Shown: positions 676 to 15,581, counted from the stretch's first letter. The stretch is 64,000 nucleotides of DNA from a bacterium (GCA_963675295.2 CAXXKJ010000001.1:114791-178790), one strand, 5' to 3'. Numbers and translations are program-made. Notes: generated by a model from the letters alone, not told the origin.

Positions 676-2058
676 CTACCCGGACCGTCCATCACCAACT
701 TCCAGGTCGATCTCCAGCGCCTGCATCTTGCGGTAGAGGGTGCTCGGGTCGATGCCGAGCTGGGCGGCCGTTTTGCCGCGGTGGCCGTTGAACCGGCGTA
801 ACGCGTTCTCGATCAAAGCGCGTTCCATCTCCCGCAACGACATCCCCTCCAGCGCGGTCAGGCGATCATCCGCCTCGCCGCGAAATTCCTCCGGCAGGTG
901 CATTGGTTCGATCACCCCGCCACGGCTCAACACGAACGCCTGTTCGAGGATATTCTCCAATTCACGCACATTGCCCGGATAGTCGTAGGCGATGAGACGC
1001 GCGAGGGTCGCTTCGCTGACACCGGAACTGTCACGATTCTGCAGCCGGGCGATCCGTGCCAGCAGGTGATTGACCAGCAATGGGATGTCGCCACGGCGTT
1101 CCCGCAACGGCGGCAGCTGCAGCTGAATCACCCGCACACGATAGTACAGATCCTCACGGAACGTACCACGCTTCACGTCGCGCTTGAGGTTGTGATGCGT
1201 CGCCGCGACCACGCGCACATCCACCGGAATTGTCTCGACAGAACCCAGCGGTTCGATCACCCGTTCCTGCAGCACCCGCAGCAGCCGCACCTGCATCGCG
1301 GGCGAAATGTCACCGATTTCGTCGAGGAAAATGGTGCCGCCCTGCGCGCGCTGGAACCGGCCCGGCTTGTCCTGGTGGGCGTCGGTGAACGCCCCTTTCA
1401 CATGCCCGAACAACTCGGATTCGAGCAACGTGTCCGGCAGTGACGCACAGTTCACCGCGACAAAAGGCTTGTCTTTACGCGGGGACAGGTTGTGAATTGC
1501 ACGCGCGAACAGCTCTTTCCCGGTGCCGCTCTCGCCAACCAGCAGCACCGTGCTCGCGCTCTCCGCGATCTGCGGCAGGATGTCGAACAACTCCCGCATC
1601 GGGGCTGAGCGGCCAACGATATCCTCGAACGTGTACCGCGCTTCCAGCTCCTTGCGCAATTGTTCGACACGGCTGAGATCCTGCATCGTCTCAACCCCGC
1701 CGATCACATCACCGGCCTCGTCACGCAGCAACGCCGTCGACAGTCGCACCGGCACACGATCCCCATCGTTGTTGACAATGTGCGCGACAGCGTTCATCAC
1801 CGGCTTGCTCGATTCCAGCGTACGCCTTAACGCGCAACGGGTTTCGCAGATATCGGTGTGGAAAATTTCCCAGCACGGCTGCCCGAGTGCGTCCTCACGC
1901 GTCACCCCGGTCAACTGCTCTGCGATGCGGTTGAAGGAGGTGATGCGCCAGTCCGGATCGACAGTAAACACCCCTTCGTTGATCGAATCCAGGATCGTCT
2001 GCTCACGGTTGATCCGTTGCGCTGTCATCGTCCCGTCCTCCGGCTTGCAGTCCGCCAT
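676..2058 (-). CDS. sigma-54-dependent transcriptional activator (PAS sensor + AAA+ + Fis-type HTH)
   Basis: [15 protein letters not shown] Walker A, GAFTDA, ESELFGH, C-terminal HTH ([15 protein letters not shown]). N-terminal PAS with a C-x8-C-x3-C motif. Start moved to MADCKP (2058) so that the 25-bp palindrome at 2071-2095 is intergenic; the ORF itself extends to 2121. Confidence 0.9.
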
Positions 2059-2070
2059 AATCTGCACGAA

Positions 2071-2095
2071 TGATTCTTGCAAAATGCAAGAATCA
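2071..2095. promoter_or_regulatory. perfect 25-bp palindrome TGATTCTTGCA-AAA-TGCAAGAATCA, candidate enhancer (UAS) / autoregulatory site
   Basis: Read directly: 11-bp arms with a 3-bp spacer. It lies 13 bp upstream of the activator start and about 115-140 bp upstream of the sigma-54 promoter at 2212. Confidence 0.5.
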
Positions 2096-2211
2096 TGTTT
2101 CACGACTCGTGCAAGATACAAAAATCATCTAATCAAGTACAACATGAAGCTCTCTTCGTAATAGCATTATAAATAGGTAAATACGGAGTTGCCAGTATGT
2201 GTACCAGGAAT

Positions 2212-2226
2212 TGGCCCGCTTTCTGC
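2212..2226 (+). promoter_or_regulatory. sigma-54 (-24/-12) promoter TGGCCCG-CTTT-CTGC
   Basis: Matches TGGCACG-N4-TTGC with correct GG-N10-GC spacing. Caveat: the -12 GC is only 13 nt before the ATG at 2239, implying a leaderless or very short-leader mRNA. Confidence 0.5.
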
Positions 2227-2238
2227 CCTGCATCAGGC

Positions 2239-2619
2239 ATGAAGGTGGCAATACCGCAATGGATGGGGCGAGTCTCCCCAGTGCTGGATGTGGCGAACCG
2301 GCTCGTGATCTGTGAACGGACCGAGCGTGGCGACATCATCCGGGAAGACATCCTGCTCGCGGACAACGATCCGTACACCCGCGCCGAAACGTTGCGTGCG
2401 CTGGGGATCACGGAGGTGGTCTGCGGAACCTTGTCGCGCGGTTTGCGGCGGGCGCTGCAGGCGGCCGGGATTGACATCTACCCGCATGTGCGGGGCGACA
2501 TCGAGCAGGTGGTGGACGCCTGTCTGAACGGATCCATCGCGAGTGACGACTTCCGCATGCCCGGCTGCGGGCATGGGCGGCGGCACGGCATGCGCCACCG
2601 TCGGGGACGACACCGGTAA
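2239..2619 (+). CDS. NifB/NifX/NafY-type (dinitrogenase FeMo-cofactor-binding fold) small protein
   Basis: N-terminus MKVAIPQ...RVSPVLDVA and length are typical of the family. The ORF-track start at 2197 is rejected in favour of MKVAIP. Confidence 0.75.
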   Translation: MKVAIPQWMGRVSPVLDVANRLVICERTERGDIIREDILLADNDPYTRAETLRALGITEVVCGTLSRGLRRALQAAGIDIYPHVRGDIEQVVDACLNGSIASDDFRMPGCGHGRRHGMRHRRGRHR

Positions 2620-2648
2620 CACAACAAGAAATACGAAGGAGCAGAACG

Positions 2649-3047
2649 ATGGCAAAGGGAAACAAGAAAGGCCCGTACAATCAGGGACCGATGACCGGCC
2701 GTGGAATGGGCTACTGCGCCGGTTTCCATGAACCGGGCTACATGAACCCCGGTTTCGGCGGTGGACGCGGCCGTGGGTTTGGTGGCGGCGGAGGCATGGG
2801 CTGGCGTCACGGTCAGGGCGGCGGCGGTGGACGTGGTCGCGGCTTTGGCTGGGGCGGCGGCATGGGACGCGGATTCCATCCCGGTATGGCAGTGCCGCCG
2901 TGGGCGGAACAGGGCTATCCGGGCTACGAGGACGAGGATGAACTCGAGTTCCTCAAAACGCAGGCGAAGTCGTACGAGAGCGACCTCAAGACGATTCGCA
3001 AGCGGATGGATTCGCTCGAACGCGACATGAAGCAGGACAAGGACTAA
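2649..3047 (+). CDS. DUF5320-type Gly/Arg-rich protein with C-terminal coiled coil
   Basis: GPMTGRGMGYCAGF motif, GGGRGRGFGGGGG tracts, and a C-terminal ELEFLKTQAKSYESDLKTIRKRMDSLE helix. Confidence 0.7.
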   Translation: MAKGNKKGPYNQGPMTGRGMGYCAGFHEPGYMNPGFGGGRGRGFGGGGGMGWRHGQGGGGGRGRGFGWGGGMGRGFHPGMAVPPWAEQGYPGYEDEDELEFLKTQAKSYESDLKTIRKRMDSLERDMKQDKD

Positions 3048-3087
3048 CCGCCGGACCGGTTCACACCGTTTCAGCGGAGGAGGCACT

Positions 3088-3519
3088 ATGAGCCCGCGAG
3101 GACGAGGATTCGGCCGAGGAATGGGCGGAGGAGGCCGTGGACACGGCGGGGGACGGGCACACCGTCTCCGGGATGGATCCTGCCGGGGTGGATCTGTCCT
3201 TTCACCGGGCAACGTGGAACGGAACGCCGCCGCGATCAAGGCGGCATCCACCGTCGCGCTACCGTTGCTGAAGCTGGCCGGACAAGCCTTGCTGCAGGCG
3301 ACGCGCGGCCTGCTGGAACGTGCGCGGCAACGCCCAGAAACCGCCCGGATTGAGACGACTGTTCGTTCGGCGAACCGTGAACTCGCGACACAGCAGGAAC
3401 CGGAGCAGATCGAGGTGATCGACGTGGAAGCGTTGCCTGTGGACGAGGACAACAAAGATGGCCGCTATCTGGATACGGCACCGCGGACATCTGTACGGGA
3501 TTCCGGTGCAACGGAGTGA
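3088..3519 (+). CDS. hypothetical RG-rich protein
   Basis: Strong RBS GGAGGAGG 6 nt upstream of the ATG. N-terminus PRGRGFGRGMGGGGRGHGGG followed by a helical region. No family recognised. Confidence 0.55.
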   Translation: MSPRGRGFGRGMGGGGRGHGGGRAHRLRDGSCRGGSVLSPGNVERNAAAIKAASTVALPLLKLAGQALLQATRGLLERARQRPETARIETTVRSANRELATQQEPEQIEVIDVEALPVDEDNKDGRYLDTAPRTSVRDSGATE

Positions 3520-3521
3520 GG

Positions 3522-3884
3522 ATGACCATGCGAATTGCATTCACAACATCCGGCGATTCGTTGCAGGCAGCATTCGAACCTCATGTCGCACGGGCGAGTC
3601 ACATCCTGCTGTACGACAGATCCAGTGGGATGTTCGAGGTCCTGCCGGGTTGCCAGCCCGCAAGCCGGGACCAGCAACCCGGGGTGCAGCTCGCGCACGC
3701 TTTGCAACGGATCGGCGTCGATACACTGGTGACCGGGCATGGTGACGCTCAAGACCTCCAACAGTTGAAGTCGGAAGGCATTGACGTTTGCGAACTGGAT
3801 GCGACAACCGTCGCGGATGCGTTCAACCAGTTCAACGCCTTGCACGCGAAAGCGCAAGGAACGGCGTCAGCTCCGCAACACTAA
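3522..3884 (+). CDS. NifB/NifX/NafY-type small protein
   Basis: M(T)MRIAFTTSGDSLQAAFEPHVARASHILLYD is a typical family N-terminus. The ATG lies 3 nt after the upstream stop; 3528 is an alternative start. Confidence 0.75.
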   Translation: MTMRIAFTTSGDSLQAAFEPHVARASHILLYDRSSGMFEVLPGCQPASRDQQPGVQLAHALQRIGVDTLVTGHGDAQDLQQLKSEGIDVCELDATTVADAFNQFNALHAKAQGTASAPQH

Positions 3885-3950
3885 TGTCGAGCCGCAGCCT
3901 TGTGAATCCGACTGGACCCGGACCTGTGCCGGGGTAAACCGAGGGGCAGC

Positions 3951-4394
3951 ATGACAAAGATCGCGGTCATCATCTGTGACCGGTACCGCAACTGCGGTGG
4001 GGGAAAGTGCTTCCGGGCGCTGCGGGAGCGGAAGGGCGGTTTTACACGCTATCCGGCGGATGAGGACGTCGAGATCGTCGGGTATTCCACCTGCGGCGGT
4101 TGTCCCGGCGGCAACATCGAGTATGTCCCCGCCGAGTTCAAGAAGAACGGCGCCGAGGTGGTGCATCTGGCGACCGGATTCGTGGTGGGGTACCCTCCGT
4201 GCCCGTACCTGGCCGGGTTCAAGACCTACATCGAGACGATTCATCACCTGCCGGTTGTGGTCGGGACGCACCCGATCCCGCTGAAATACCTGCAGGCACA
4301 TGAACAGCTTCCCTTCTGGAAAGATTCCGGCATGCGAGAGCTTGCGGGCGAGCTGATGGACGAGTCGGCAGATACGATGGAAGCCTACAACTGA
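3951..4394 (+). CDS. CGGC domain-containing protein
   Basis: MTKIAVIICDRYRNCGGGKC ... STCGGCPGGNIEY, the Cys pattern of the CGGC family. Confidence 0.8.
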   Translation: MTKIAVIICDRYRNCGGGKCFRALRERKGGFTRYPADEDVEIVGYSTCGGCPGGNIEYVPAEFKKNGAEVVHLATGFVVGYPPCPYLAGFKTYIETIHHLPVVVGTHPIPLKYLQAHEQLPFWKDSGMRELAGELMDESADTMEAYN

Positions 4395-4410
4395 TACGAG
4401 GACCAGCAAC

Positions 4411-4773
4411 GTGAAAATCGCGGTTACGACATCCGGTACCGATCTGAACGCTCCATTCGAAGCACGCTTCGGTCGTGCGGCCTGCTTTCTCATCTACGAT
4501 CTCGAGCAGTCGGCGTTTGAAATCATCGACAACCAGGCGAACGCGCAAGCCGCTCGTGGCGCGGGAATCCAGGCGGCGCAGTCGGTGTGCCAGCGTGGCG
4601 CTCAGGTGTTGTTGACCGGCCATTGCGGGCCGAAGGCGTGGGATGTACTTCAGGCGGCTGGGGTTGAGGTGTTCAACATCGAGGCGACCACGGTGGCGAA
4701 CGCGTTGGAACAGTACAACAACGGATCGCTTACGCCAGCCGGGGGCGCCAATGTCCAAGGACACTGGTCATGA
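4411..4773 (+). CDS. NifB/NifX/NafY-type small protein
   Basis: GTG start preceded by GAGGA. (M)KIAVTTSGTDLNAPFEARFGRAACFLIYDL. Confidence 0.8.
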   Translation: MKIAVTTSGTDLNAPFEARFGRAACFLIYDLEQSAFEIIDNQANAQAARGAGIQAAQSVCQRGAQVLLTGHCGPKAWDVLQAAGVEVFNIEATTVANALEQYNNGSLTPAGGANVQGHWS

Positions 4774-5297
4774 GCCAATCCCTCACCCTGCACCCGATCG
4801 GCGTCATCCGAAGCGTACACACCGAGCCGGAGAAGACACCGATCCAGCCGATGTTCGCGCAGGATTGCATCGGAACCGTCGTTGTGGACGAGAAATACCT
4901 CGACGCACTCGCCGATATCGACCGCTTCTCGCATCTTTACCTGATTTACTGGCTGCACAAGGCCGGACCGGTGAAGTTGAAGCTGAAGCCGTTCCTGAGT
5001 GACGACATTCGCGGGTTGTTCGCGACACGAGCACCGAGCCGCCCCAACCCGATCGGGATGAGCATCGTCGAGCTGATCAGCCGGGACGAAAACATCCTCG
5101 ATGTGCGCGGCGTGGACATCCTCGATGGGACCCCGTTGCTGGATATCAAGCCATACACCGAACGGTTTGACAATGTGCAGACCCGCCGCAACGGCTGGCA
5201 GGACAGGTTGGACGACGAAACCGCGGAACGGTTGGGAAGACGCAACTACCAGCCCGCTCCACCTGTACCCGAACATGAAAATAGACGGAAGGATTGA
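4770..5297 (+). CDS. TsaA/TrmO (YaeB, UPF0066) family SAM-dependent methyltransferase-fold protein
   Basis: HPIGVIRS..., RAPSRPNPIGMSIV, LDGTPLLDIKPY. ATGA start/stop overlap with the upstream gene. Confidence 0.85.
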   Translation: MSQSLTLHPIGVIRSVHTEPEKTPIQPMFAQDCIGTVVVDEKYLDALADIDRFSHLYLIYWLHKAGPVKLKLKPFLSDDIRGLFATRAPSRPNPIGMSIVELISRDENILDVRGVDILDGTPLLDIKPYTERFDNVQTRRNGWQDRLDDETAERLGRRNYQPAPPVPEHENRRKD

Positions 5298-5303
5298 CCC
5301 ACG

Positions 5304-6176
5304 ATGAAACTCGTGATCGCCAGCGGGAAAGGCGGCGCCGGTAAGACGATGGTCGCGACCAACCTGGCTTGGACTGCCGCGCAACAAGGCATCGACACGG
5401 CCTTTCTCGACTGCGATGTGGAAGAACCGAACGCCGCGCTGTTTCTCAAGCCGGAGATCGATAACGTTTTGCCGGTGCACGTACCGACGCCGGTGATCAA
5501 CCAGGACGCGTGTACGCACTGCGGGCTGTGTTCCGATATCTGCCGCTACAACGCGCTCGCCGTGCTCAGCGACAAGGTGCTGTTGTTCAACGAATTGTGC
5601 CACTCCTGCGGCGGATGCGTGCATGTCTGCCCGGAGCACGCGATCCACGAGGAACCGCGCCTTGTCGGACACATCGACGTTGGCCAGTCCGGCACGCTGA
5701 AGGTCCGTTCCGGTGTGCTCAAGGTGGGGGAGGCAATCGCTCCGCCGGTGGTGAAGGCGGTGAAACAGCAGGCTGGCGACGAAACCCTGACCATCCTCGA
5801 CTCCCCGCCCGGAACCGCCTGCCCGGCGGTGGAAACGGTGCGTGATGCCGACTTCGTGCTCTTCGTCGGCGAAGCGACACCGTTTGGACGGCACGATCTC
5901 GCGCTCGCGATCGACCTCGCGGAAGCGCTGAAACGACCGTTCGCCGTGATGCTGAACCGTGCCGATCTCGACCATGGCGAGACGAAACGCTGGTGCGAGG
6001 AGAAGGGATACAGCGTCCTTGCGGAAATCAACGAGGACCGGCGGATCGCTGAAACCTGCTCAAGCGGCGCGCTGGTCGTGGACACACTTCCCGACTACCA
6101 GGAGGTGTTCAGCAAACTGCTGGTGGATGTGAATGCGGCGGCGGGGATCACCACAAACGAACAGGTGCGCGGATGA
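5304..6176 (+). CDS. MinD/ParA/Mrp-type P-loop ATPase with inserted 2x[4Fe-4S] ferredoxin domain
   Basis: Deviant Walker A SGKGGAGKT. CTHCGLCSDIC and CHSCGGCVHVCP ferredoxin motifs. Confidence 0.85.
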   Translation: MKLVIASGKGGAGKTMVATNLAWTAAQQGIDTAFLDCDVEEPNAALFLKPEIDNVLPVHVPTPVINQDACTHCGLCSDICRYNALAVLSDKVLLFNELCHSCGGCVHVCPEHAIHEEPRLVGHIDVGQSGTLKVRSGVLKVGEAIAPPVVKAVKQQAGDETLTILDSPPGTACPAVETVRDADFVLFVGEATPFGRHDLALAIDLAEALKRPFAVMLNRADLDHGETKRWCEEKGYSVLAEINEDRRIAETCSSGALVVDTLPDYQEVFSKLLVDVNAAAGITTNEQVRG

Positions 6177-7072
6177 AACCGACGGAACTGGTTGTGATCA
6201 GCGGCAAGGGCGGAACCGGCAAAACGTCGCTGGTGGCGGCGTTCGCCACGCTGGCTGCTGAATGTGTCCTGGCGGATTGTGATGTGGACGCGTCCAACCT
6301 GCACCTGATCCACCACTCGGAGCTGGTGCTGCGCGAACCGTTCTCCGGACGCGTGCGTGCATCGATTGATCCGGATCGCTGCACCGACTGTGGCATCTGC
6401 GAAACCCTGTGCCGCTTCGACGCGATCCAGCCATCGGGTGGAAACGGATTCACGCCGGTTTTCCACCCGACGATCAACCCGCATCTGTGCGAGGGGTGCG
6501 GCGTGTGCGCGTGGTTCTGCCCGGAAAAGGCGATTGACCTCTACGACGGCGAGGACGGGCACGTGCTGCTGTCCAAAACCCGTTGCGGGCCGATGGCGCA
6601 CGCCCGGCTCGGCGTCGCCGGCGAAAATTCCGGTAAGCTGGTTGGCCTGGTCCGTGAACAGGCACGCGAGCTGGCCGTCATGCGCGAGCTGGACACCATC
6701 CTGATTGACGGGTCTCCCGGGATCGGCTGCCCGGTGATCGCGTCCCTGACCGGCGCGGACATGGCGCTGATCGTGACCGAGCCGAGCGTCAGCGGCGTGC
6801 ACGACATGAAGCGCATCGCCGAACTGGCCGCGGGTTTCGGCATTCCGACGCTGGTCGCCGTCAACCGCTGGGATGTCAACCCGCAGTTGACTGATGAGAT
6901 TGAATCGCTGGCGGTCAAACATGGCCTTGAGTTCGCGGGACGGGTTCGCTACGACACCGCGTTCAGCCGGGCGCAGCTCGAGGGCAAATCGGTGCTGGAT
7001 ATCGAAAGCAACGACCTCGCGGATGATATCAAGCAGGTGTGGTCGGTCGTGGAGGCGCGGCTCCACAATTGA
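6173..7072 (+). CDS. MinD/ParA/Mrp-type P-loop ATPase with inserted 2x[4Fe-4S] ferredoxin domain (paralog)
   Basis: SGKGGTGKT; CTDCGICETLC and CEGCGVCAWFCP. ATGA overlap with the upstream gene. Confidence 0.85.
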   Translation: MKPTELVVISGKGGTGKTSLVAAFATLAAECVLADCDVDASNLHLIHHSELVLREPFSGRVRASIDPDRCTDCGICETLCRFDAIQPSGGNGFTPVFHPTINPHLCEGCGVCAWFCPEKAIDLYDGEDGHVLLSKTRCGPMAHARLGVAGENSGKLVGLVREQARELAVMRELDTILIDGSPGIGCPVIASLTGADMALIVTEPSVSGVHDMKRIAELAAGFGIPTLVAVNRWDVNPQLTDEIESLAVKHGLEFAGRVRYDTAFSRAQLEGKSVLDIESNDLADDIKQVWSVVEARLHN

Positions 7073-7088
7073 CGGAGGAGCTTCAGCC

Positions 7089-8009
7089 ATGAAACATGTT
7101 TATGGGCCTGTGCCCTCTAGGCGGTTGGGCAGGTCACTGGGTATCGACCTGGTCCCATACAAAACATGCAGTTTCGACTGCATTTACTGCCAGTTGAAAC
7201 GTACGACTCTGCTGACGACTGAGCGCCGCGAATGGTATCCGCTGGACGACGTAGTGGAGGACGTTAAAAGCAGCCTGTCGCAAGAGTTCGATTACATCAC
7301 TCTGAGCGGGTCCGGCGATCCCACGCTCTACAGTCGGCTGGGAGAATTGATCGACCGGATTCATTCACTGACGGATCGTCCTGTCGCAGTGCTGACCAAC
7401 GGATCGCTGCTCTGGCGGGAGGATGTGCGGCAGGAGCTGAAGGAGGCTGACCTGTTGATCCCTTCGCTGGACGCCGGGGATGAAGAAACCTTCCAGTTGG
7501 TCAACCGGCCCACTGATGAGTTGAACCTGGGCTTGATCGTCGAGGGTTTGATCCAGACCCGGGAACAGTTCCGCGGCGAGCTGTGGCTCGAGATCATGTT
7601 GGTGAATGAATGGAACACGTCCGATGAGCAGGTCCAACGGATTGCCGACCAGATTCGTTGGATTCGACCGAACCACGTGCAGCTGAACACCGTGATCCGG
7701 CCTGCAACCGAAACGTATGCCGTGGCGGTCCCTCCCGGCCGTCTGGGGAAAATTGCGACTCACTTCTCAAACGCGGACGTGATCGCCGGGTTCTCCTCAG
7801 AAGAGCTGCAAGACGCAAAACTAATGTCCGGAACGGGTGAAGAATCGGTGATGGAAATGCTGATCCGGCGTCCGTGCACGTTGCAGGATTTGTCGGATGG
7901 ACTGCAATGCCACCCCAACGAGGCAGTCAAAGCACTGGACCGCTTGCAGGAAATGGGAAAGATCCGCACACGTGATGTGGATGACAAGATGTATTACCTG
8001 GCGTGCTGA
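7089..8009 (+). CDS. radical SAM protein
   Basis: MKHVYGPVPSRRLGRSLGIDL...CSFDCIYC (Cx3Cx2C). Start set at MKHVYG; the ORF-track start at 6894 overlaps the upstream gene. Confidence 0.85.
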   Translation: MKHVYGPVPSRRLGRSLGIDLVPYKTCSFDCIYCQLKRTTLLTTERREWYPLDDVVEDVKSSLSQEFDYITLSGSGDPTLYSRLGELIDRIHSLTDRPVAVLTNGSLLWREDVRQELKEADLLIPSLDAGDEETFQLVNRPTDELNLGLIVEGLIQTREQFRGELWLEIMLVNEWNTSDEQVQRIADQIRWIRPNHVQLNTVIRPATETYAVAVPPGRLGKIATHFSNADVIAGFSSEELQDAKLMSGTGEESVMEMLIRRPCTLQDLSDGLQCHPNEAVKALDRLQEMGKIRTRDVDDKMYYLAC

Positions 8010-8120
8010 ACCATTAAACAGTGTTGGGTTCGCATAGCCCGGATCAAGTTGAACAAGAACGAACCTGAGGTCACCCCTGACCCTCTCCAATGACACCTTG
8101 ATGCCCACTATAAGACCAAA

Positions 8121-8159
8121 CCGCCCGTGGCATGGACCTTCCCAGTCTGCCACGGGCGG
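8121..8159. terminator. 12-bp-stem hairpin between convergent genes (bidirectional terminator candidate)
   Basis: CCGCCCGTGGCA-N15-TGCCACGGGCGG followed by AATGATTTTG. Confidence 0.5.
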
Positions 8160-8188
8160 AATGATTTTGTCAGAATGGTTGGTTCGAA

Positions 8189-8539
8189 TCAGTCGAGGCC
8201 TTCCTTCTCAAACTGCTTCACAGCCTCATAGGCTTCGATGCCGTAAATCACGGACGGTCCGCCACCCATCAGAATCGCCACGCCGATCGTCTCAAGGATT
8301 TCCTCCCTGGATGCGCCGGCCTTGAGCGAATCGTGCACATGGAACGAGATACACCCGTTACAGCGAACGGTGATGGCGATGCTGAGCGCGATCAACTCCT
8401 TGGTTTTCTTGTCAAGCGCGCCTTTGCCGCCAGCCGCCTGATGAAGCTGGCCGAAGCCTTCCATTACGCCGGGCAGATCCTGATGCAGCCGCTTCATCAT
8501 CCCGACGGTGTGCTTGTAGGTCTCCGGATAGTTGTGCAT
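8189..8539 (-). CDS. carboxymuconolactone decarboxylase / AhpD-like family protein
   Basis: LDKKTKELIALSIAITVRCNGCISFHV (CxxC AhpD-like motif). 116 aa. Confidence 0.85.
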   Translation of the reverse strand: MHNYPETYKHTVGMMKRLHQDLPGVMEGFGQLHQAAGGKGALDKKTKELIALSIAITVRCNGCISFHVHDSLKAGASREEILETIGVAILMGGGPSVIYGIEAYEAVKQFEKEGLD

Positions 8540-8607
8540 CGTCTCCTCCTTTTACCAGTCAGGTAGCCATGCAAGAGTTTCAGCGAAATTCGTCCTGTTG
8601 AATCCAT

Positions 8608-10587
8608 CTACCTTGTGAACTCCTGCACATACACCATCTGTTCCGAGGAAAGCTTCGTTTCCTCTCGGAGGAGGGTCGGCGTCATCTCATGGCACGTGGT
8701 GCAGCGATCCAGCTCGGGACGGTTCTGCGACAATGCGTTTTTCGTGTGGCACGGGATGCACGTGTTGTGCATCGCGCTATGGTACGAGGTCGCCGCAAAC
8801 TGCGCCAGCCTGCCGGCCGCTGGTTCCACCGCGTGCATGTCTTCACGATGGCATTCCATGCACGCCTTCGCGGATGCGACCGAGCGTGCCTGCCCACTGT
8901 GGCATTCGACACAGGACTGGTTTTCCGGTATCCAGCCGCCCAGTTGCTTGTCGTCCGCGACCCACGCCAGGTGCTGCTCGTGGTTGAAGATCACCGTTTC
9001 CGTCTCCATCGCACGGTGACACTCGGAACACGGCGTCGCACGGTCGGCGGGCATGGAAAGGTGATGGCAGTTGACGCACGATTCCTCGCCACCCAACCGC
9101 TGCTTGTGTGCGGCGTGGGCGAAGACGGCGTCCAGACCGTCACGGTTGGCGTCGATACGAAGCGTATCCCGCGCCACATCCACCGCCAGCGGCGGACGTG
9201 TGTCCGGCGGAGTGGAACTGTGGAACGGTGGGTACAGCGCGATCCACGCCAGCGGCAATACGAGCAACGCAATCAGCGAGGCACGTTCAAGGCCGGTCAT
9301 CAGCCGGTGATTCCAGGCCCAGGTCAGCCGGTCGAACGAGGAGCTGAATTTCAGCTCGGAATCGGCGAGGCGTTTCCAACGCTCGTCAAACACACTGAAG
9401 TTTTCGATGATGAAGAAAAACGCCAGCCCGGCCATGGCGAGCACGCCGAACGTAATCACCCACTCAATCGCGGAGGGGAAGTAGGCTTCGCCGGCGTCAC
9501 GGAAGTAGCCGAAAATGCCGACATCGACACGGTTCAGCGCCAATCCGAACGCCGCCAGCCCGGCGGTGACCGCCAGGGCGTATGGCGAGCGGCGCACCGG
9601 CTTGAACAGCACGAGCAGCACCGGCAAAATCGCAGCCGCCAACAGTTCGACGACGTACAGCACGCTCTCCCACGTACCCGCCAGCAATGCCTGCCGTGCT
9701 TCCGGACGCAAGACGAGATCACCGATCTTCAGCAGCAGGTAAACACTCAGCACCCATGCGCCGGCCTTGACCAGCGCCCGCACCACGTGCAGGTCCGGTC
9801 CCTCCGGCGTGGCACCGTTTTCCGATTCTCCGCCGCAGGTCTTGCAGACGACGCCCTCACGAACCATCGTCCCGCCAAACACACGGCTCGGATCGTACCA
9901 CCACGAGTGCAGCGTCTTGATCAATGCCAGCAGCATCAGCCCGCCACCAATCGCCGAGATGATGAACAGCAGGGAGATGATCGGGCTGTACCACAATGCG
10001 TGCAGCCGCTGCGGCGTCACCAGGAACAACGATCCCAGCGAGGTGTGGTGCAGGCTGGAGAGGGTGATGCCGATGATGACGAACACGCCCGCCGCCTTGC
10101 TCAGCACGCCGCGCAGTTTCGCCAGCCCCAGCCGCTCGAGCAGCGTCGGGCTGAGTTCGAGGAAGGTGATCACGAAGTAGCAGGAGACACACCAGAAGAC
10201 CTCGAACAGGAACGAATGGATGTTCCAGTAGACAAACGGATGCCAGAAACGCCACGGCAGCCCGATGTCAAACAGCAACGCGAACAACGACGCGCCGTAG
10301 CCTAAAAACGCCACCAGGATCGCCGGTTTCACCATCCGGTCGAATGGTTTCAGGTGCAGTACATGGCCGAGGAAGCCGACGGTAAACCCGCAGGTCGCCA
10401 ACGCCGCGCCGCCAATCATGTTGAAGATCTTCCACAGTCCCCACGGGACACGGTCATCGAGGTTTGTCGTCACGCCCAGCCCGAACACGAACCGCAGCAG
10501 CATCGCCACCAGTCCGGCAAATGTCAGCGCCCAGAGGATGTCCTTGATCCGTCGCGTCCGGTCGGTTGTCAGTTCCAGCTCACTCAT
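8608..10587 (-). CDS. NrfD/PsrC/HmcC/DsrP-like integral membrane subunit fused to a C-terminal hexaheme cytochrome c3-like domain
   Basis: About 460 aa of polytopic membrane sequence typical of the NrfD family. The last ~190 aa carry six CxxCH motifs: CVNCH, CSECH, CVECH, CMECH, CIPCH, CTTCH. Confidence 0.85.
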   Translation of the reverse strand: MSELELTTDRTRRIKDILWALTFAGLVAMLLRFVFGLGVTTNLDDRVPWGLWKIFNMIGGAALATCGFTVGFLGHVLHLKPFDRMVKPAILVAFLGYGASLFALLFDIGLPWRFWHPFVYWNIHSFLFEVFWCVSCYFVITFLELSPTLLERLGLAKLRGVLSKAAGVFVIIGITLSSLHHTSLGSLFLVTPQRLHALWYSPIISLLFIISAIGGGLMLLALIKTLHSWWYDPSRVFGGTMVREGVVCKTCGGESENGATPEGPDLHVVRALVKAGAWVLSVYLLLKIGDLVLRPEARQALLAGTWESVLYVVELLAAAILPVLLVLFKPVRRSPYALAVTAGLAAFGLALNRVDVGIFGYFRDAGEAYFPSAIEWVITFGVLAMAGLAFFFIIENFSVFDERWKRLADSELKFSSSFDRLTWAWNHRLMTGLERASLIALLVLPLAWIALYPPFHSSTPPDTRPPLAVDVARDTLRIDANRDGLDAVFAHAAHKQRLGGEESCVNCHHLSMPADRATPCSECHRAMETETVIFNHEQHLAWVADDKQLGGWIPENQSCVECHSGQARSVASAKACMECHREDMHAVEPAAGRLAQFAATSYHSAMHNTCIPCHTKNALSQNRPELDRCTTCHEMTPTLLREETKLSSEQMVYVQEFTR

Positions 10588-11363
10588 TGTTCGCCACCCC
10601 CGTGCCCGTTGGTTGACGCGTCCGGTCCATGCATCTGCTGCATCCGCCGCCGCACGATCCAGTTCACTCCGGCCACGCTGGCGAGCACGCTACCGCCGAC
10701 AATCGGCGTCGCGTGCATCACCGGTTCGACCAGGTGCGGAATCGACCCGGTATCCGGGGAGGGCCAGCCCAGTTCGGCGAGGTCGGTGTTCGCGATGTAG
10801 AGCACGCCCGTACCGCCGAATTCATGCTCGCCCCAGACGTGGTCGATGTACCCGTTCGGATTCTCACCGATCCGCTGGTGCGCGAGACGCAGCAACTTCT
10901 CTCGCTCGCCAAACTCGATCGCGTTCTGCGGGCAGGCCTCCGCGCAGGCCGGGATTTCGCCCTCCGCGAGACGTTCCTCGCACAACTCGCATTTCTTCAT
11001 GAACGGCACCGTCGCCGACCACTCGTAGCGCGGTACGTGAAACGGGCACGCCAGCATGCAGTAACGGCAGCCGATGCACTTGTCAGGATCGTAGACCACC
11101 GCACCATTTTCGCTGCGGGTGATGCCGCCAACCAGGCACGCGCTGACGCAACTCGGCTCGAGGCAGTGCATGCACGCCTTCTTCGCGAACTGGTCCCAGC
11201 CAACCGGCTGCACCGTCGTCAACCGGTCCGCTGAAAGCCCGTCCGGGGTGGTCGCACGGTCACGGTCGGCGGCTGCCGGGTCGCAGCCGTTGGCCTTCAC
11301 GCAGGCCGCGACACATTTCTCGCAGCCGACGCATTTCGTCACATCAATCAGCATCCCGATCAT
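10584..11363 (-). CDS. 4x[4Fe-4S] ferredoxin-type subunit (HmcB/DsrO/NrfC-like) with C-terminal TM helix
   Basis: CVGCEKCVAAC, CMHCLEPSCVSAC, CIGCRYCMLACP, CELCEE...CAEACP. No N-terminal Tat or Sec signal is visible. Hydrophobic C-terminal segment IVGGSVLASVAGVNWIV. Confidence 0.85.
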   Translation of the reverse strand: MIGMLIDVTKCVGCEKCVAACVKANGCDPAAADRDRATTPDGLSADRLTTVQPVGWDQFAKKACMHCLEPSCVSACLVGGITRSENGAVVYDPDKCIGCRYCMLACPFHVPRYEWSATVPFMKKCELCEERLAEGEIPACAEACPQNAIEFGEREKLLRLAHQRIGENPNGYIDHVWGEHEFGGTGVLYIANTDLAELGWPSPDTGSIPHLVEPVMHATPIVGGSVLASVAGVNWIVRRRMQQMHGPDASTNGHGGGEQ

Positions 11364-12064
11364 ACCTTCGCCTCCTTGCCGAGCACCGTCTCCGCGACAC
11401 GATCGCCCGCGCCCGGACGCAACTGCCAGTGAATCTCCGAGATGCGGTCAAAGAAGATCAGCACGATGTGGCTCAGCTTGGTGAACGGCACCAGGATCAA
11501 CAACGCTTCCGCGCTGAGCAGGTGGATGAGGAACATCGTCTGCCACGGCAATGGATTAAACGCCGGATGCGCCGCGAGGAAGCCGCTGATGAACGGCAGC
11601 AGGATCAACACCAGCAGGCTGACGTCCGAATTGCGGCTGATCGCACGCAGGCGTGGCACCGCGATCCGGCTGACCAACAGCACCAGCACCGCAAGGATCG
11701 TGATCACGGTGAGCACATCCGCAAATCCGTTCCCGATCGACCACAGGTTGATCCCGAGCCACTGTTCCCAGAGCACGATGTGGCCGGCGTAAAACAGCGG
11801 CACGAGGATCGCACCGATGTGGAACACGAATGATGCGTTGGAGAAAGTCACGTTGCCCGATGTCAGGTGACGGACCGGCAGCGCCCACTCCAGCGAGTCG
11901 TGCAGCATCTTGTTCCACGGCATGTATTTGAGCCGGCTGCGTTTGCGCCGGAACAACGTGTCCAGTTGCAGCACCAGGTGCCGCAGCAGCCCGAGTGCCA
12001 TCACGCCCAGCGACAAGGCGAACAACGGCCCCATCGCGAAATCGATCCAGGCTTGCATTCCCAT
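11360..12064 (-). CDS. NarI/DsrM/HmcE-like membrane cytochrome b subunit
   Basis: About 5 TM helices with conserved His residues, layout of the nitrate reductase gamma family. Overlaps neighbours by 4 nt. Confidence 0.75.
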   Translation of the reverse strand: MGMQAWIDFAMGPLFALSLGVMALGLLRHLVLQLDTLFRRKRSRLKYMPWNKMLHDSLEWALPVRHLTSGNVTFSNASFVFHIGAILVPLFYAGHIVLWEQWLGINLWSIGNGFADVLTVITILAVLVLLVSRIAVPRLRAISRNSDVSLLVLILLPFISGFLAAHPAFNPLPWQTMFLIHLLSAEALLILVPFTKLSHIVLIFFDRISEIHWQLRPGAGDRVAETVLGKEAKV

Positions 12065-12071
12065 CCTCCAC

Positions 12072-13514
12072 TCACATGGCGTACAGTTCCGCCTCTTCCT
12101 TGCGTTCCTCCGCCGACTTGCCGCCGGGGATCTCGATCGCCTTCAGGATCAGGTCGTGCAGGCCCATCACCTCGCACGGGATCTCGTAAAACTCGACCAG
12201 TTCCTTGAGCTGCTTCTTGCAATTGGCGCAAGGGGCGATGCAGATCTGCGCGCCGGTCGCGACGATCTGGTCGGCCTTTGTCTTGCCGCCGACCTTCATC
12301 CGGAAGTCGTGGATCTCGTCAATCGACACCAGCCCGCCACCACCGCCACAGCAGTAATTGTTGCGGCCTCCCGGTGTCATCTCGACATAGTCCTTGACGA
12401 ACGACTTGAGGATTTCGCGGGGCTGGTTCACAATCCAGCCGCCACGCGCCATGTTGCACGGGTCGTGGTAGGTCACTTTCTCGGTGATGATGTCCGGGTT
12501 CAGCTTGATCTTGCCCCGGCGCAAACAATCCAGCGTGTATTCGATGAAGCTGACTACCGGACGGGTCTGTGCACCGCCGAAGACTGGCACGAAATCATGC
12601 GCCGACCGCGAGGCGTGCCCGCATTCGCCGATCAGGATGTTCTTCCCGTTCAATCGGTCGACTTCACCGACGAGCTGCTTGATGATCCGTTCGAGATGCC
12701 AGTCGCTGTAGAACAGGCCGTAGTTGATGCCGTCGAAATTGCCGGTGCCGATGGTCCAGCGATCCCAGTCGCCGGCGGCGTGCAACACCGCGAGGTTGCC
12801 GAGCAACGTGTCCGGCTCCATCAGGTAGTCGCTGACCGCGCAGAAGAAGACGTAATCCCGGTTCTTCTTGTCCACCGGCACGTCCAGATCGATGCCGAAC
12901 TGGTCGGAGAATTCCTCTTGCAGGAATTCGAGCGTGTGCAGCATCGCCGTCGCCGGAACCTTGGACGTGTTGTGCGTTTCACCTTCCAATTGTTCCCGCA
13001 CACTTACTTGCAGCGCCTTCGGTGCAATCCCCGTGAGGCTCAGGATATAGCGTCCGAGACGAGTGATCAGGCCGTGATCCATCCCCATTGGACATTCGAG
13101 TGTGCAACGGCGGCAGGCGGTGCAACGGTAGAACACCTCCGCCATCTCCGCGATGACCTCTTCCGTCAGCTCGAACCGGTTCGGCGTGAACCGTGCATTG
13201 AGCCATCCGCCGAGCGTGAAGTACCGCTGGTAAATCGAAAGCAGCAGCGTCGTCTTGTAGCACGGCACATCGCGCGGGTCGCCGGTCACCTGGTACACCG
13301 GACAAGTCACCGAACAGCGGTTGCACTTGTTCGTCGTGCGGCAGTACGAATCGAGCAGCGGCTTGTAGTCCGTGTGCTCGAGCACCGCCGCGAACGCATC
13401 GAGGAAACGTTCCACCCTTCCCCCCGAACCGTTGCCCTCGATGTGGTACGGCAGGCGGGCTTTCAGGTCGATCTCGGCTGACGTAGCCAGGCCGCCGTTC
13501 GTTGTTTCAGCCAT
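12072..13514 (-). CDS. HdrD/DsrK/HmcF-like (Fe-S)-binding CCG-domain oxidoreductase
   Basis: CNRCSVTCP, CTACRRCTLECP, NYCCGGGGG, CANCKKQ. Start set at MAETT (13514), preceded by GGAG; the ORF extends to 13526. Confidence 0.85.
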   Translation of the reverse strand: MAETTNGGLATSAEIDLKARLPYHIEGNGSGGRVERFLDAFAAVLEHTDYKPLLDSYCRTTNKCNRCSVTCPVYQVTGDPRDVPCYKTTLLLSIYQRYFTLGGWLNARFTPNRFELTEEVIAEMAEVFYRCTACRRCTLECPMGMDHGLITRLGRYILSLTGIAPKALQVSVREQLEGETHNTSKVPATAMLHTLEFLQEEFSDQFGIDLDVPVDKKNRDYVFFCAVSDYLMEPDTLLGNLAVLHAAGDWDRWTIGTGNFDGINYGLFYSDWHLERIIKQLVGEVDRLNGKNILIGECGHASRSAHDFVPVFGGAQTRPVVSFIEYTLDCLRRGKIKLNPDIITEKVTYHDPCNMARGGWIVNQPREILKSFVKDYVEMTPGGRNNYCCGGGGGLVSIDEIHDFRMKVGGKTKADQIVATGAQICIAPCANCKKQLKELVEFYEIPCEVMGLHDLILKAIEIPGGKSAEERKEEAELYAM

Positions 13515-13556
13515 GCAGAACTCCATTGGGTTGCAGTGTTGTCGCTGCCGGTGTCA

Positions 13557-13571: not shown

Positions 13572-13721
13572 AACAAGAAGAGGCGGGCAAATCCGGCTGG
13601 AAAACGAGGCCGCTGTAACTCGTGTCACCGCTGCGAATTCACCAGCGGGGAGAGGCCGAGGTACCTGCGCCGCACGTGGTACGATTTCGCATTCCTGATT
13701 TTCCGTTTTTGCGCGAAAAGT

Positions 13722-13786
13722 GTTGCAGGCGTTGCAGCGAAACGTTGTGTTGCAACGACTCCTGCTACAGCTGCGACACTTGCAAC
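13722..13786. promoter_or_regulatory. cluster of four (G/C)TTGCA(G/A) boxes including the palindrome GTTGCAAC; candidate shared enhancer site
   Basis: GTTGCAG at 13722 and 13731, GTTGCAAC at 13749, CTTGCAAC at 13779. Located midway between the two divergent sigma-54 promoters. Confidence 0.3.
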
Positions 13787-13930
13787 TCACGACCCGGGCA
13801 CCTGACCGGAGACCGTCTTACACACGACGGAAGATTCACGTAACTCCCGTGCCTCAACCGCTCCGCGTGATTTCGTCCTGCTCATTCCGTCATCAAGGGG
13901 GGTACCGTTACGCGACGCTGATCCCTATCC

Positions 13931-13944
13931 GGCACAACGCTTGC
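13931..13944 (+). promoter_or_regulatory. sigma-54 (-24/-12) promoter GGCAC-AACGC-TTGC
   Basis: Near-consensus match. GGAGG RBS at 13964-13968 and ATG at 13975. Confidence 0.6.
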
Positions 13945-13974
13945 CGTTTGCTGCGATGAAACCGGAGGCGATCC

Positions 13975-15027: not shown

Positions 15028-15581
15028 CGATGGTGTCGATGAAGTCCATCGGGCTATGCGCCAACTATTCGGAAGCGGGAGACTGGGCGTTCGACTTCGC
15101 CCTCGGGCTCGCACGCAAGCACAACCTGCAGCTGAACATCTTCCACTTTCTCGCGGACCCGTTCGACCCCTCCGCCGATTCCCCGATGGCGATGCCGAAG
15201 GATCAACGGGACGCGATGTCGATCGAGATGGAACGCAATCTGCGCTTCTACTACGACGAACGTCTCGGCGATCACCTTAAGGCCGGATTCCGCGTCTGCG
15301 AAAGCAATGAGTGGACCGAGCTGCATCACTGCCTGATGCGCCGTGAATTTGAGCTGCTGGTGCTGCCGTACCCAAAGCGGAACGCCACCTTCGGCGGCAA
15401 GCCAATTGAAGATTTCGCGAAGAATTTCGTGTCGCCGGTGGCACTGGTCGGACCGGACACTCCCGACCAGATCCGGCTGAACAACCAGGCCGGCCTGGCG
15501 AACAAAATCGCCGATTTCGTCGGCGCGCAAGAGATCCTGGCGACGGCGCTTGCGCTGATCATGATGGCAGGCAGCATTTGA
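15024..15581 (+). CDS. universal stress protein (UspA)-like protein
   Basis: ATGA overlap with the upstream gene. USP-like alpha/beta layout (LQLNIFHF..., ELLVLPY...). Weak assignment. Confidence 0.6.
   Translation: MTMVSMKSIGLCANYSEAGDWAFDFALGLARKHNLQLNIFHFLADPFDPSADSPMAMPKDQRDAMSIEMERNLRFYYDERLGDHLKAGFRVCESNEWTELHHCLMRREFELLVLPYPKRNATFGGKPIEDFAKNFVSPVALVGPDTPDQIRLNNQAGLANKIADFVGAQEILATALALIMMAGSI

Follow-up and report, generated by a model that had tools for sequence, protein, structure and literature searches.

The described systems closest to the operon reported here are the orange protein (ORP) system of Desulfovibrio and the thioferrate-binding protein IssA of Pyrococcus furiosus. The ORP of D. 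gigas carries a Mo-Cu sulfide cluster; protein and cluster have long been known, and the orp operons and OrpR have been analyzed genetically. In D. vulgaris Hildenborough, the genes are organized as orp3-orp4-orp5, orpR and orp7-orp8-orp9 (PMC8359166; PMC6345978). The paralogous ATPases Orp3 and Orp4, with two [4Fe-4S] ferredoxin motifs each, occur in a complex with the orange protein Orp8, and MrpORP transfers Fe-S clusters to both (PMC6345978). IssA consists of a Nitro_FeMo-Co-type globular domain and a cationic, Gly/Arg/aromatic tail of 70 residues with a single Cys. This tail has been proposed to wrap anionic thioferrate, and an uncharacterized mesophilic 'IssX' clade has also been described (PMC5524996). 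In this work, an operon at 2239-8009 of a 64,000-nucleotide stretch of a bacterial genome (GCA_963675295.2, CAXXKJ010000001.1:114791-178790; the whole stretch is called the window) is compared with these systems. By homology and gene order, the operon is an expanded form of the ORP system of strict anaerobes. Taken as a whole, it is best explained as an expanded ORP system with redox-gated, ATP-driven handling of anionic metal-sulfide species, to which a probability of about 0.55 is assigned.

Identity and layout of the operon

The operon comprises ten consecutive open reading frames (ORFs; g1 to g10) in the same orientation on the plus strand (Table 1). Its identity as an ORP system follows from the match of g6 to the D. 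gigas ORP, the Orp3/Orp4 architecture of g8 and g9, the OrpR-type regulator and the gene backbone of Desulfovibrio sp. X2. The best PDB match of g6 is the D. gigas ORP (2WFB, E-value 1.6e-23, residues 2-114 of 120), and the protein scores 79 bits against the Pfam family Nitro_FeMo-Co and is 44% identical to the ORP of Desulfovibrio sp. X2. Both g8 and g9 match the Pfam families CbiA, ParA and Fer4, have a deviant Walker A motif and carry two CxxCxxCxxxC motifs each. They are 38.5% (g8) and 47% (g9) identical to the first and second ATPase of the Desulfovibrio sp. X2 pair, respectively. The canonical comparison rests on the sequence of the D. gigas ORP structure and on the locus of Desulfovibrio sp. 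X2, which was reached by a search with the D. gigas ORP sequence. The locus of this cultured bacterium contains two PAS-type sigma-54 activators, a g1-type gene, a gene for a Gly-Arg/Gly-Gln-rich (GR/GQ-rich) protein, ORP, two ferredoxin-ATPases and a further NifX-fold gene.

Two other products share the NifX fold. A Nitro_FeMo-Co score of 30.5 bits and PDB matches to 1RDU and 2WFB were obtained for g4. The score of g1 (25.6 bits) is just below the cut-off of 26.3 bits, and its homolog in a more distant relative (L030, approximately 39% identical) reaches 37.3 bits with the same family. In Desulfovibrio sp. X2, too, the cluster opens with a g1-type gene. MrpORP (Orp9), which combines Mrp/NBP35 and Di-Nase parts, was searched for in the 64-kb window, where no ORF with a deviant Walker A motif besides g8 and g9 was found. 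The NCBIfam model for MrpORP matched nothing beyond P-loops and the NifX-fold parts of these two proteins, g1 and g6, with 20-43 bits compared to a cut-off of 450.

The intergenic distances from g1 to g10 are, in order, 29, 40, 8, 66, 16, -4, 6, -4 and 16 nucleotides (nt). A clear GA-rich, Shine-Dalgarno-like stretch precedes seven of the nine downstream genes (g2, g3, g4, g5, g7, g8 and g10); it is weak only at g6 and g9, and none was found at g1. No terminator-like site was detected on the plus strand within the operon. Rfam and ARAGORN searches over the window gave no riboswitch, such as the molybdenum cofactor riboswitch; the sole match was a tRNA-Arg(CCT) at 44139-44213 on the minus strand.

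An earlier description of this operon, made by a model from the DNA alone (the sequence-only reading), had given the same coordinates, strand and spacing, and the ATGA overlaps that it placed at 4770 (g6/g7) and 6173 (g8/g9) were confirmed. It claimed eleven genes, whereas ten ORFs were found, and its own gene list also sums to ten. All of its family assignments were recovered by profile searches with Pfam and NCBIfam, with g3 as an RG-rich protein without a family. Its statement that the ensemble has no assigned function had to be revised regarding identity, since it is the ORP system, for which orp operons, OrpR and the ORP complex have been described (PMC8359166, PMC6345978, PMC3897727, PMC4641369).

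Table 1. Positions of the genes and predicted expression signals of the operon, counted from the first nucleotide of the window.
Feature	Position	Strand	Description
g1	2239-2619	+	NifX-fold protein, MPGC motif followed by cationic tail; Orp7 position
g2	2649-3047	+	DUF5320 protein
g3	3088-3519	+	RG-rich, lineage-restricted protein
g4	3528-3884 (alternative GTG start 3516)	+	Second, more divergent ORP-like NifX-fold protein
g5	3951-4394	+	CGGC-domain cysteine-rich protein
g6	4411-4773	+	Orange protein (ORP, Orp8) ortholog
g7	4770-5297	+	Single-domain TsaA/TrmO-like protein
g8	5304-6176	+	MinD/ParA-class ATPase with inserted 2x[4Fe-4S] ferredoxin domain (Orp3/Orp4 type)
g9	6173-7072	+	MinD/ParA-class ATPase, paralog of g8, with inserted 2x[4Fe-4S] ferredoxin domain (Orp3/Orp4 type)
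g10	7089-8009	+	Small radical SAM enzyme, one CX3CX2C cluster, C-terminal winged-helix-like domain
OrpR-type sigma-54 activator	676..2028 (alternative start 2058)	-	PAS, AAA+ and Fis-type helix-turn-helix domains
Candidate activator-binding palindrome	2070-2096		ATGATTCTTGCAAAATGCAAGAATCAT; repeat finder
Candidate activator-binding palindrome	2104-2128		Degenerate second copy; repeat finder
Sigma-70-like promoter facing orpR	2166..2195	-	CTGGCA-18-TATAAT; consensus scan, 10/12 matches
Sigma-54-type -24/-12 element	2212-2227	+	TGGCCCGCTTTCTGCC; conserved in L088 and L030
Terminator-like hairpin with T-run, 3' of g10	8146-8170 (terminator-like site 8146-8160)	+	Terminator scan; within the 107-nt block common to L088

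Conserved core and accessory modules

For the gene neighborhood survey, one genome per species was scanned with an alignment of g9-type proteins. This yielded 80 loci, which cover numerous bacterial phyla as well as four archaeal lineages. All counts refer to 82 loci, comprising these 80, one further locus (L001) and the window. The loci were scored by tblastn with the window proteins and by de novo clustering of same-strand ORFs, and representatives of the key clusters were annotated with Pfam. The gene set proved to be syntenic in many other genomes, contrary to the outcome that the sequence-only reading had named as refuting its proposal. The sequence-only reading had described a dedicated pathway; rather than a fixed unit, however, there is a conserved core, and accessory genes come and go between close relatives.

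The ferredoxin-ATPase was recovered by clustering in 79 loci and, as the search anchor, is present in all of them, usually as a pair. NifX-fold genes are found in 69 loci and DUF5320 genes in 43, followed by OrpR-like activators (24), the metallo-beta-lactamase fold (22), ARMT1/DUF89, Zn_ribbon_8 and the g10-type radical S-adenosylmethionine (SAM) enzyme (21 each), NifU_N (20) and a short DUF5320 protein plus zinc ribbon (17). Less common are TsaA-like genes (13), DUF134 (12), class I methyltransferases (11), CGGC (10) and FUR (6). The loci nearest to the full gene set of the operon are L045 (Smithella), L066 (Acidobacteriota), L044 and L032, and archaeal loci with the ATPase pair are L047, L069, L071 and L074. 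DUF134 and OrpR-type activators never occur together in the same ORP-type locus (0 of the 12 DUF134 loci), which suggests that they are alternative regulators of the same core.

Judged from these comparisons, the core that recurs across the 82 loci is the ORP-like protein together with the ATPase pair, while DUF5320, CGGC, TsaA-like and radical SAM genes are variable. In terms of the operon, the conserved core is the ORP-type NifX-fold protein g6, the ATPase pair g8 and g9, and the g1-type NifX-fold protein with its MPGC motif and cationic tail. The six accessory modules, i.e. DUF5320, the RG-rich g3, the second ORP paralog, CGGC, the TsaA-like protein and the radical SAM enzyme, recur in other phyla with quick gain and loss.

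This gain and loss can be followed in two relatives of the window lineage. L088 has nine genes (g1-g9), with proteins 83-96% and DNA 87-90% identical to the window, and the more distant L030 has six genes at the same site (g1, g2, a g3-like gene, g6, g8 and g9). The second ORP paralog, g4, is thus present in L088 and absent from L030. Two segments of the window are without a counterpart in L088, namely 7063-8060 with g10 and 8168-8685 with a minus-strand gene of the carboxymuconolactone decarboxylase family. Between them lies a 107-nt block with a terminator (window 8061-8167, L088 10939-11045, 96% identity). Both segments lie in a GC trough of approximately 0.56, compared to 0.60-0.64 elsewhere in the operon. 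Since 7063-8060 is missing from L088 and the GC content drops, g10 is either a recent gain here or a recent loss in L088. From the alignment, the two segments look like a recent insertion on either side of the terminator block.

Promoter region and regulation

The activator upstream of the operon is encoded divergently from it; it matches the Pfam families PAS, Sigma54_activat and HTH_8 and is 53% identical to the activator beside the ORP cluster of Desulfovibrio sp. X2. Its PAS domain has cysteines at positions 52, 61 and 65 (Cx8Cx3C, numbered from the ATG at 2028), and in D. vulgaris OrpR, the [4Fe-4S] cluster that senses redox changes depends on Cys52, Cys61 and Cys65 (PMC8359166). It carries GAFTDA rather than GAFTGA, a variant that is also listed for DVU2106 (PMC4641369). 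Among 27 activators adjoining ORP-type clusters, Cx8Cx3C is found at the corresponding position in 24, of which 18 also have GAFTDA. According to the source labels of the metagenome-assembled genomes, such activators come from Planctomycetota, Lentisphaeria, Verrucomicrobiota, Acidobacteriota, Myxococcales and Spirochaetes in addition to deltaproteobacteria; those with the first six labels belong to the loci L001, L004, L005, L007, L009, L020, L064, L066, L075 and L076. The OrpR paper describes the regulator as confined to deltaproteobacteria, and the OrpR-type activators found beside ORP-type clusters extend this range.

Both candidate activator-binding palindromes are located 110-170 nt upstream of g1, and palindromes of the type TTGCA-N3/4-TGCAA also occur 117-173 nt upstream in L007, L009 and L076. 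The D. vulgaris OrpR site GGGCGYRTTTTGCGCCC has arms flanking an A/T tract, a layout shared by the palindromes in the window. They sit between the sigma-70-like promoter and the start of orpR. The orpR gene of D. vulgaris Hildenborough is sigma-70-driven (PMC3897727), and the geometry in the window, with a predicted promoter, fits a sigma-70-driven orpR by analogy; sigma-70-like matches across the region are not above the shuffle expectation. The search for binding sites of the integration host factor gave only matches to WATCARNNNNTTR with two mismatches.

For sigma-54, a consensus scan of the window resulted in 30 matches compared to 30.6 expected, i.e. no excess. The -24/-12 element has the counterparts TGGCCTGCTTTCTGCC in L088 and TGGCATGCCTTTTGAC in L030. 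In the alignment of the intergenic region between activator and g1 from these three genomes, the two palindromes and the -24/-12 element form the conserved islands, while their surroundings diverge. In approximately 20 other loci, strong TGGCAC-N5-TTGC elements are found 12-54 nt before the start codon of the g1-type gene. The match in the window is weak when taken alone and gains weight because it is conserved in the relatives and has an equivalent position in these approximately 20 loci. Comparative evidence, consisting of the conserved predicted elements, these other loci and the 24 of 27 activators, argues for sigma-54 control, which the sequence-only reading had supposed, through the adjoining activator.

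The ATG of g1 follows 13 nt after the GC of the -12 element. Since this distance is so short and g1 lacks a Shine-Dalgarno sequence, its mRNA is predicted to be leaderless or nearly so. A spacing of 12-15 nt between the -12 element and the start codon is also observed in L001, L005, L030, L064 and L076, and leaderless sigma-54 transcripts seem to recur in ORP-type clusters. By analogy with D. vulgaris OrpR, we infer that the operon is expressed in a redox-responsive manner at low potential.

Cysteine-containing cationic proteins

Three products of the operon combine cationic stretches of pI (isoelectric point) 11-12 with one conserved Cys each, namely the tail of g1, the N-terminal half of g2 and the N-terminus of g3. 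The C-terminus of g1, MPGCGHGRRHGMRHRRGRHR, contains the MPGC motif followed by the cationic tail GHGRRHGMRHRRGRHR, which has approximately 26 residues, a pI of 12 and few aromatic residues. MPGC is present in 20 of 27 g1-type proteins, nearly all of which have an Arg/Lys/His/Gly-rich tail. g2, which matches the Pfam family DUF5320 with 69 bits, has a Gly/Arg/aromatic-rich N-terminal half with one Cys (GRGMGYCAG) and an acidic coiled coil as its C-terminal half; residues 1-80 show a pI of 11.3 and an overall glycine content of 28%.

The N-terminus of g3, RGRGFGRGMGGGGRGHGGGRAHRLRDGSCRGG, is an RG-rich run that ends in a conserved G-x-CRG and is followed by a hydrophobic helix and an acidic tail. 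No Pfam or NCBIfam match was found for this protein, and a search with its non-repetitive part against 1.84 billion representatives yielded only two relatives. Its N-terminal run through G-x-CRG can be aligned with a protein of L030 and weakly with the GR/GQ-rich protein of Desulfovibrio sp. X2. The possibility that g3 is a low-complexity artifact was rejected due to a strong ribosome-binding site and conserved relatives.

In the ORP cluster of Desulfovibrio sp. X2 (L086, 8002-8900), ORP is preceded by two genes for which no Pfam family is recorded and scanning brought up no credible match. They encode a g1-type NifX-like protein with MPGC and a GR-rich tail, and a GR/GQ-rich protein with a conserved Cys. 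Since both types precede ORP there, the cationic Cys-bearing proteins belong to a Desulfovibrio ORP cluster too, with the GR/GQ-rich gene in the same position as in the window. Proteins with Cys-plus-Arg/Gly-rich stretches may be an overlooked regular component of these clusters, resembling the thioferrate-binding tail of IssA.

Ferredoxin-ATPases and the cell division hypothesis

More than 8000 homologs were found for g9, and Cys186 in PGIGCPVIA is invariant across 25 of them. An AlphaFold2 (AF2) model of g9 had a pLDDT (predicted local distance difference test) score of 85, and in Foldseek searches with this model, MinD, FlhG/FleN and the Fe proteins of nitrogenase or dark-operative protochlorophyllide oxidoreductase (DPOR) scored similarly. 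Assigning g9 to a MinD-like or a NifH-like class in this way was abandoned, as the two relatives were not separable. The architecture of an ATPase with an inserted ferredoxin was not found among solved structures. The model also predicts a C-terminal helix at residues 281-298.

These properties bear on the published hypothesis that ORP proteins act in cell division or positioning. Here, the two MinD-like ATPases would direct the septum, or a different structure, to its place at the membrane or pole, with the small proteins as adaptors. Inactivation of OrpR in D. vulgaris leads to morphological defects, and the ORP proteins have been called 'putatively involved in cell division'. MrpORP is located at one pole, and for Orp3 and Orp4 a MinD-like C-terminal amphipathic helix has been reported (PMC6345978). 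The helix predicted at the end of g9, and MinD, FlhG and FleN as its top structural matches, also speak for the hypothesis. However, g8 and g9 score far below the cut-offs of the NCBIfam models for MinD (54 bits compared to 202 for TIGR01969 and 47 compared to 213 for TIGR01968), and neither MinC nor MinE was detected in the operon or in the ten flanking genes that were profile-scanned, up to position 17012 (17 kb). In addition, the ATPases have an inserted double-cluster ferredoxin and are matched by nitrogenase Fe proteins almost as well as by MinD, and the pair also occurs in archaeal loci. The recurring neighbors are NifX-fold, NifU_N, FUR, radical SAM and CGGC genes rather than division genes. 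For these reasons, a role in cell division is considered unlikely.

SAM-dependent module

The Pfam family CGGC is matched by g5 with 92.5 bits. In a locus from Desulfohalobiaceae (L014), the CGGC gene sits between the two ATPase genes, and on this gene position g5 is a candidate counterpart of Orp5, a small cysteine-rich [2Fe-2S] protein of the Orp3-4-5-8-9 complex. g7 matches TrmO_N with 128.6 bits (residues 23-134 of 175) and exceeds the cut-off of TIGR00104 (TsaA) in NCBIfam with 125.3 compared to 93.25 bits. In the Pfam search at E <= 0.01, TrmO_N was the only domain found and TrmO_C was not detected; the best PDB match is the single-domain protein AF_0241. The gene is translationally coupled to g6 by the ATGA overlap, and a TsaA-like gene is located directly downstream of the ORP gene in L027, L044, L045, L066 and L076. 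In the literature, searches turned up no relevant work on DUF5320, the CGGC domain or COG1149.

g10 matches the Pfam family Radical_SAM with a single CX3CX2C motif, and no auxiliary-cluster cysteines were found in its sequence. NCBIfam gave no NifB match, and the best model was that of TYW1 (TIGR03972) with 42 bits compared to a cut-off of 318. The family is very large, and its homologs are labeled COG0731-like by the Joint Genome Institute (JGI). In an AF2 model with a pLDDT of 79, the predicted fold is nearest to pyruvate formate-lyase activase (PFL-activase) and viperin, and NifB appears from rank 28. Attempts to assign a radical SAM subfamily by PDB sequence search, NCBIfam, and AF2 with Foldseek gave generic matches only. 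As a membership claim, the identification of g10 with a split NifB was dropped because there was no NifB model match, no auxiliary clusters and a NifB rank of at least 28.

In the survey, these genes are associated with each other and with the core. TsaA-like and radical SAM genes occur together in 9 of the 13 TsaA loci (indicative Fisher p 4e-4), and both are associated with the metallo-beta-lactamase-fold gene. Of 22 loci, 13 combine a radical SAM gene with a TsaA-like or methyltransferase gene (indicative p 8e-5). In L050, a single ORF (13589-14527) encodes TrmO_N fused to CGGC (Pfam 128 and 95 bits), and therefore the families of g7 and g5 are linked. Both in bacteria and in archaea, g10-type genes are found as immediate neighbors of the ATPase genes. 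A search anchored on g10 yielded one OrpR-controlled operon ending in a radical SAM gene (L085), one DUF5320-radical SAM pair and one unrelated context. A SAM-using module of radical SAM, TsaA-like, CGGC and metallo-beta-lactamase-fold proteins thus appears to be tied to the core and gained or lost within one lineage.

The association with the core is relevant for the possibility that g7 and g10 are ordinary tRNA modification enzymes, a TrmO m6t6A methyltransferase and a TYW1-like protein, which merely share the operon. g7 is above the NCBIfam TrmO equivalog cut-off and matches TrmO structures, TYW1 is the best NCBIfam match of g10, and homologs of g10 are annotated as wyosine synthetase-like by JGI. 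Against this, the TYW1 score is far below the cut-off, and g7 is without the C-terminal domain that E. coli TrmO has. The coupling of g7 to the ORP gene, the position of TsaA-like genes next to the ORP gene in five other loci, the TrmO_N-CGGC fusion, and the co-occurrence of g7-type and g10-type genes within ORP-type clusters across phyla also speak against this explanation, which is regarded as highly improbable.

Alternatively, the whole operon could perform NifB-like chemistry with separate proteins. In this case, g7 (or class I methyltransferases elsewhere) and g10 would modify a cluster on NifX-fold carriers, which would then be processed by the Fe-S ATPases into a cofactor other than that of nitrogenase. 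The parts are parallel to NifB, NifX and NifH, i.e. a radical SAM enzyme, NifX-fold carriers and Fe-S ATPases of the SIMIBI class. The pairing of radical SAM with TsaA-like or methyltransferase genes, as well as the g10-type genes beside ATPase genes and in OrpR-controlled operons, would also be consistent with it. However, g10 has its CX3CX2C motif only, without auxiliary-cluster cysteines or a NifB model match, and its fold is nearer to PFL-activase and viperin. The module is also optional, since L088 is without g10 and L030 without g7 and g10, and there is no NifEN-like scaffold. As an explanation of the operon, this is very unlikely.

As a claim about the module itself, it is doubtful, and on balance quite improbable, that g7 and g10, probably with g5, modify a metal-sulfur cluster on ORP-type NifX-fold carriers. 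This would split NifB-like methyl transfer and radical chemistry over several proteins and give a cofactor or detoxified thiometallate unrelated to nitrogenase. If true, the series of 6, 9 and 10 genes found at one site in three related genomes would constitute a natural set of pathway intermediates.

Flanking genes and possible client proteins

Downstream of the operon, the window, L088 and L030 share an opposite-strand Hmc-like complex, a gene for a NifX-DUF1847 protein and a second OrpR paralog. The Hmc/Dsr-like unit (8608-13526, minus strand) consists of four genes. They encode a 659-amino-acid (aa) NrfD-like membrane protein fused to a C-terminal multiheme cytochrome c domain, a four-cluster ferredoxin, a NarI-like protein and a CCG-domain HmcF/DsrK-like protein; the last of these, the HmcF-like protein, shares 81% identity with its L030 counterpart and 97.5% with that of L088. 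A second OrpR-type unit spans 13723-17012. It begins with a cluster of TTGCAAC/GTTGCA repeats (13723-13790) upstream of the gene for a 350-aa protein (13975-15027), in which an N-terminal NifX-like domain of the g1 type, 24% identical to g1 itself, is joined to DUF1847. This gene is preceded by the sigma-54-like element CGGCACAACGCTTGCC (13930-13945, 29 nt before the ATG). On its 3' side lies the OrpR paralog (15705-17012), which is 45% identical to the first OrpR and has Cx8Cx3C and GAFTDA.

The sequence-only reading had proposed that the operon is a dedicated maturation system for such a neighboring client, building a cofactor for, or delivering it into, the Hmc-like complex or the NifX-DUF1847 protein. 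The order of these genes after the ORP operon in all three genomes is consistent with this proposal, as is the ORP cluster of Desulfovibrio sp. X2, which adjoins a DsrMK/HmcEF-like unit and a cytochrome c3. The DUF1847 matches that accompany ORP-like clusters in six further loci of different phyla, together with the g1-type domain and sigma-54-like element of the protein in the window, point in the same direction. On the other hand, nearly all of the 80 other loci have the ORP core but no HmcF-like gene, the strand of the Hmc-like genes is opposite to that of the operon, and the OrpR targets in D. vulgaris chromatin immunoprecipitation sequencing (ChIP-seq) were the orp operons only. DUF1847 occurs in only 7 of the 82 loci. 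Overall, a dedicated maturation function is quite unlikely. The Hmc-like complex is weakly supported as a client because its adjacency is specific to this lineage and, loosely, to Desulfovibrio sp. X2. The recurrence of DUF1847 is suggestive and, with a protein that starts with a g1-type domain, makes this link slightly stronger, if still weak.

Further downstream, two adjacent secreted proteins (17379-19199 and 19267-20727) have the common N-terminal motif PAPTPTEPANEV after their signal peptides and are probably paralogs because of this shared motif. Relatives of the window lineage encode proteins with Por_Secre_tail (type IX secretion) near that region.

Functional interpretation

In the preferred explanation as an expanded ORP system for anionic metal-sulfide species, low redox potential would cause OrpR to turn the operon on. 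The products would form an ATP-driven, redox-active complex which captures, holds and hands over anionic inorganic metal-sulfide species. The cargo could be Fe-S fragments, chains resembling thioferrate, or thiometallate clusters, of which the Mo-Cu sulfide of the D. gigas ORP is an example. NifX-fold domains would serve as carriers, and the Cys-plus-Arg/Gly-rich stretches of g1, g2 and g3 would bind the cargo electrostatically, a role that has been proposed for the IssA tail. The ATPase pair would gate the transfer by nucleotide and supply electrons through its ferredoxin domains, and the SAM module (g7, g10 and probably g5) may modify the cargo or a partner protein.

A function in metal-sulfide handling is favored because of the recurrent NifU_N and FUR neighbors, the Fe-S transfer from MrpORP to Orp3 and Orp4, and the parallel to IssA. 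The metal-cluster theme of the sequence-only reading also fits these neighbors, which occur in 20 and 6 loci, respectively. The findings move the working hypothesis from cell division towards the handling of anionic metal-sulfide species under sulfidic, low-potential conditions, and they name specific proteins as handles on ORP function.

Nevertheless, several points weigh against this explanation. Neither a cysteine desulfurase, a scaffold nor MrpORP was found in the operon by the NCBIfam scan and the Walker A search. The sole published phenotype is a cell-shape defect upon OrpR inactivation in D. vulgaris, for which the published hypothesis is septum positioning, and MinD is the top structural match of the g9 model, albeit by a small margin. 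The tail of g1 is much shorter than that of IssA, with approximately 26 compared to 70 residues. With regard to regulation, TGGCCCGCTTTCTGCC has three mismatches to the sigma-54 consensus and is a chance-level match when taken alone. The p-values for co-occurrence are only indicative, since truncated contigs are numerous and the loci lack phylogenetic independence.

Comparison with known systems

Compared to nitrogenase cofactor assembly, the operon has NifX-fold carrier domains as in NifX and NafY, a radical SAM enzyme, and ATPases that belong to the SIMIBI class of NifH and carry Fe-S clusters. The differences are that g10 is without the auxiliary clusters of NifB, that the radical SAM gene is optional, and that the Fe-S clusters of the ATPases are predicted in an inserted ferredoxin domain and not at a NifH-like dimer interface. 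No NifEN, NifDK or NifH was found among the operon genes and the ten profile-scanned flanking genes up to 17012. With Mrp/NBP35/ApbC proteins, g8 and g9 share a P-loop ATPase with deviant Walker A that is linked to Fe-S proteins, as well as the genomic association with NifX-fold domains. In contrast to these proteins, they have no CXXC; instead, one invariant Cys in PGIGCP and an inserted ferredoxin are present, and their scores with the NCBIfam MrpORP model are 31-43 bits compared to the cut-off of 450.

The likeness to IssA lies in the globular domain of g1 (IPR003731, Nitro_FeMo-Co) and in its cationic, glycine-rich and presumably disordered tail with a cysteine, a chemistry that is also found in g2 and g3 as separate proteins. 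Unlike in IssA, the cationic stretches are mostly on separate polypeptides, and the shorter tail of g1 has no proline-rich segment. Expression of the operon is predicted to be redox-responsive via OrpR, whereas IssA responds to elemental sulfur. Particle formation is also not known for the window proteins.

The closest relative remains the ORP system of D. vulgaris and D. gigas. In both, a NifX-fold protein of the ORP type is accompanied by a pair of paralogous MinD-like ATPases, each with two [4Fe-4S] motifs, by an adjoining PAS-type sigma-54 activator with C52/C61/C65 and GAFTDA, and by a first gene of the g1/Orp7 type. The palindromes with arms flanking an A/T tract and the -24/-12 element, as predicted in the window, are further common features, and both systems are restricted to anaerobes. 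In contrast to the two divergent three-gene operons of D. vulgaris, the window contains one ten-gene operon, from which MrpORP (Orp9) is missing and to which DUF5320, the RG-rich g3, a second ORP paralog, CGGC, the TsaA-like protein and the radical SAM enzyme are added. The activator site is TTGCA-AAA-TGCAA rather than GGGCGYRTTTTGCGCCC, and the predicted promoter is so near to the start codon that a leaderless mRNA would result. Finally, the host belongs to a non-deltaproteobacterial lineage. The system and its redox-sensing activator are not confined to deltaproteobacteria, and what is new is an expanded, MrpORP-less variant of the ORP system from a host outside the group in which ORP has been studied.

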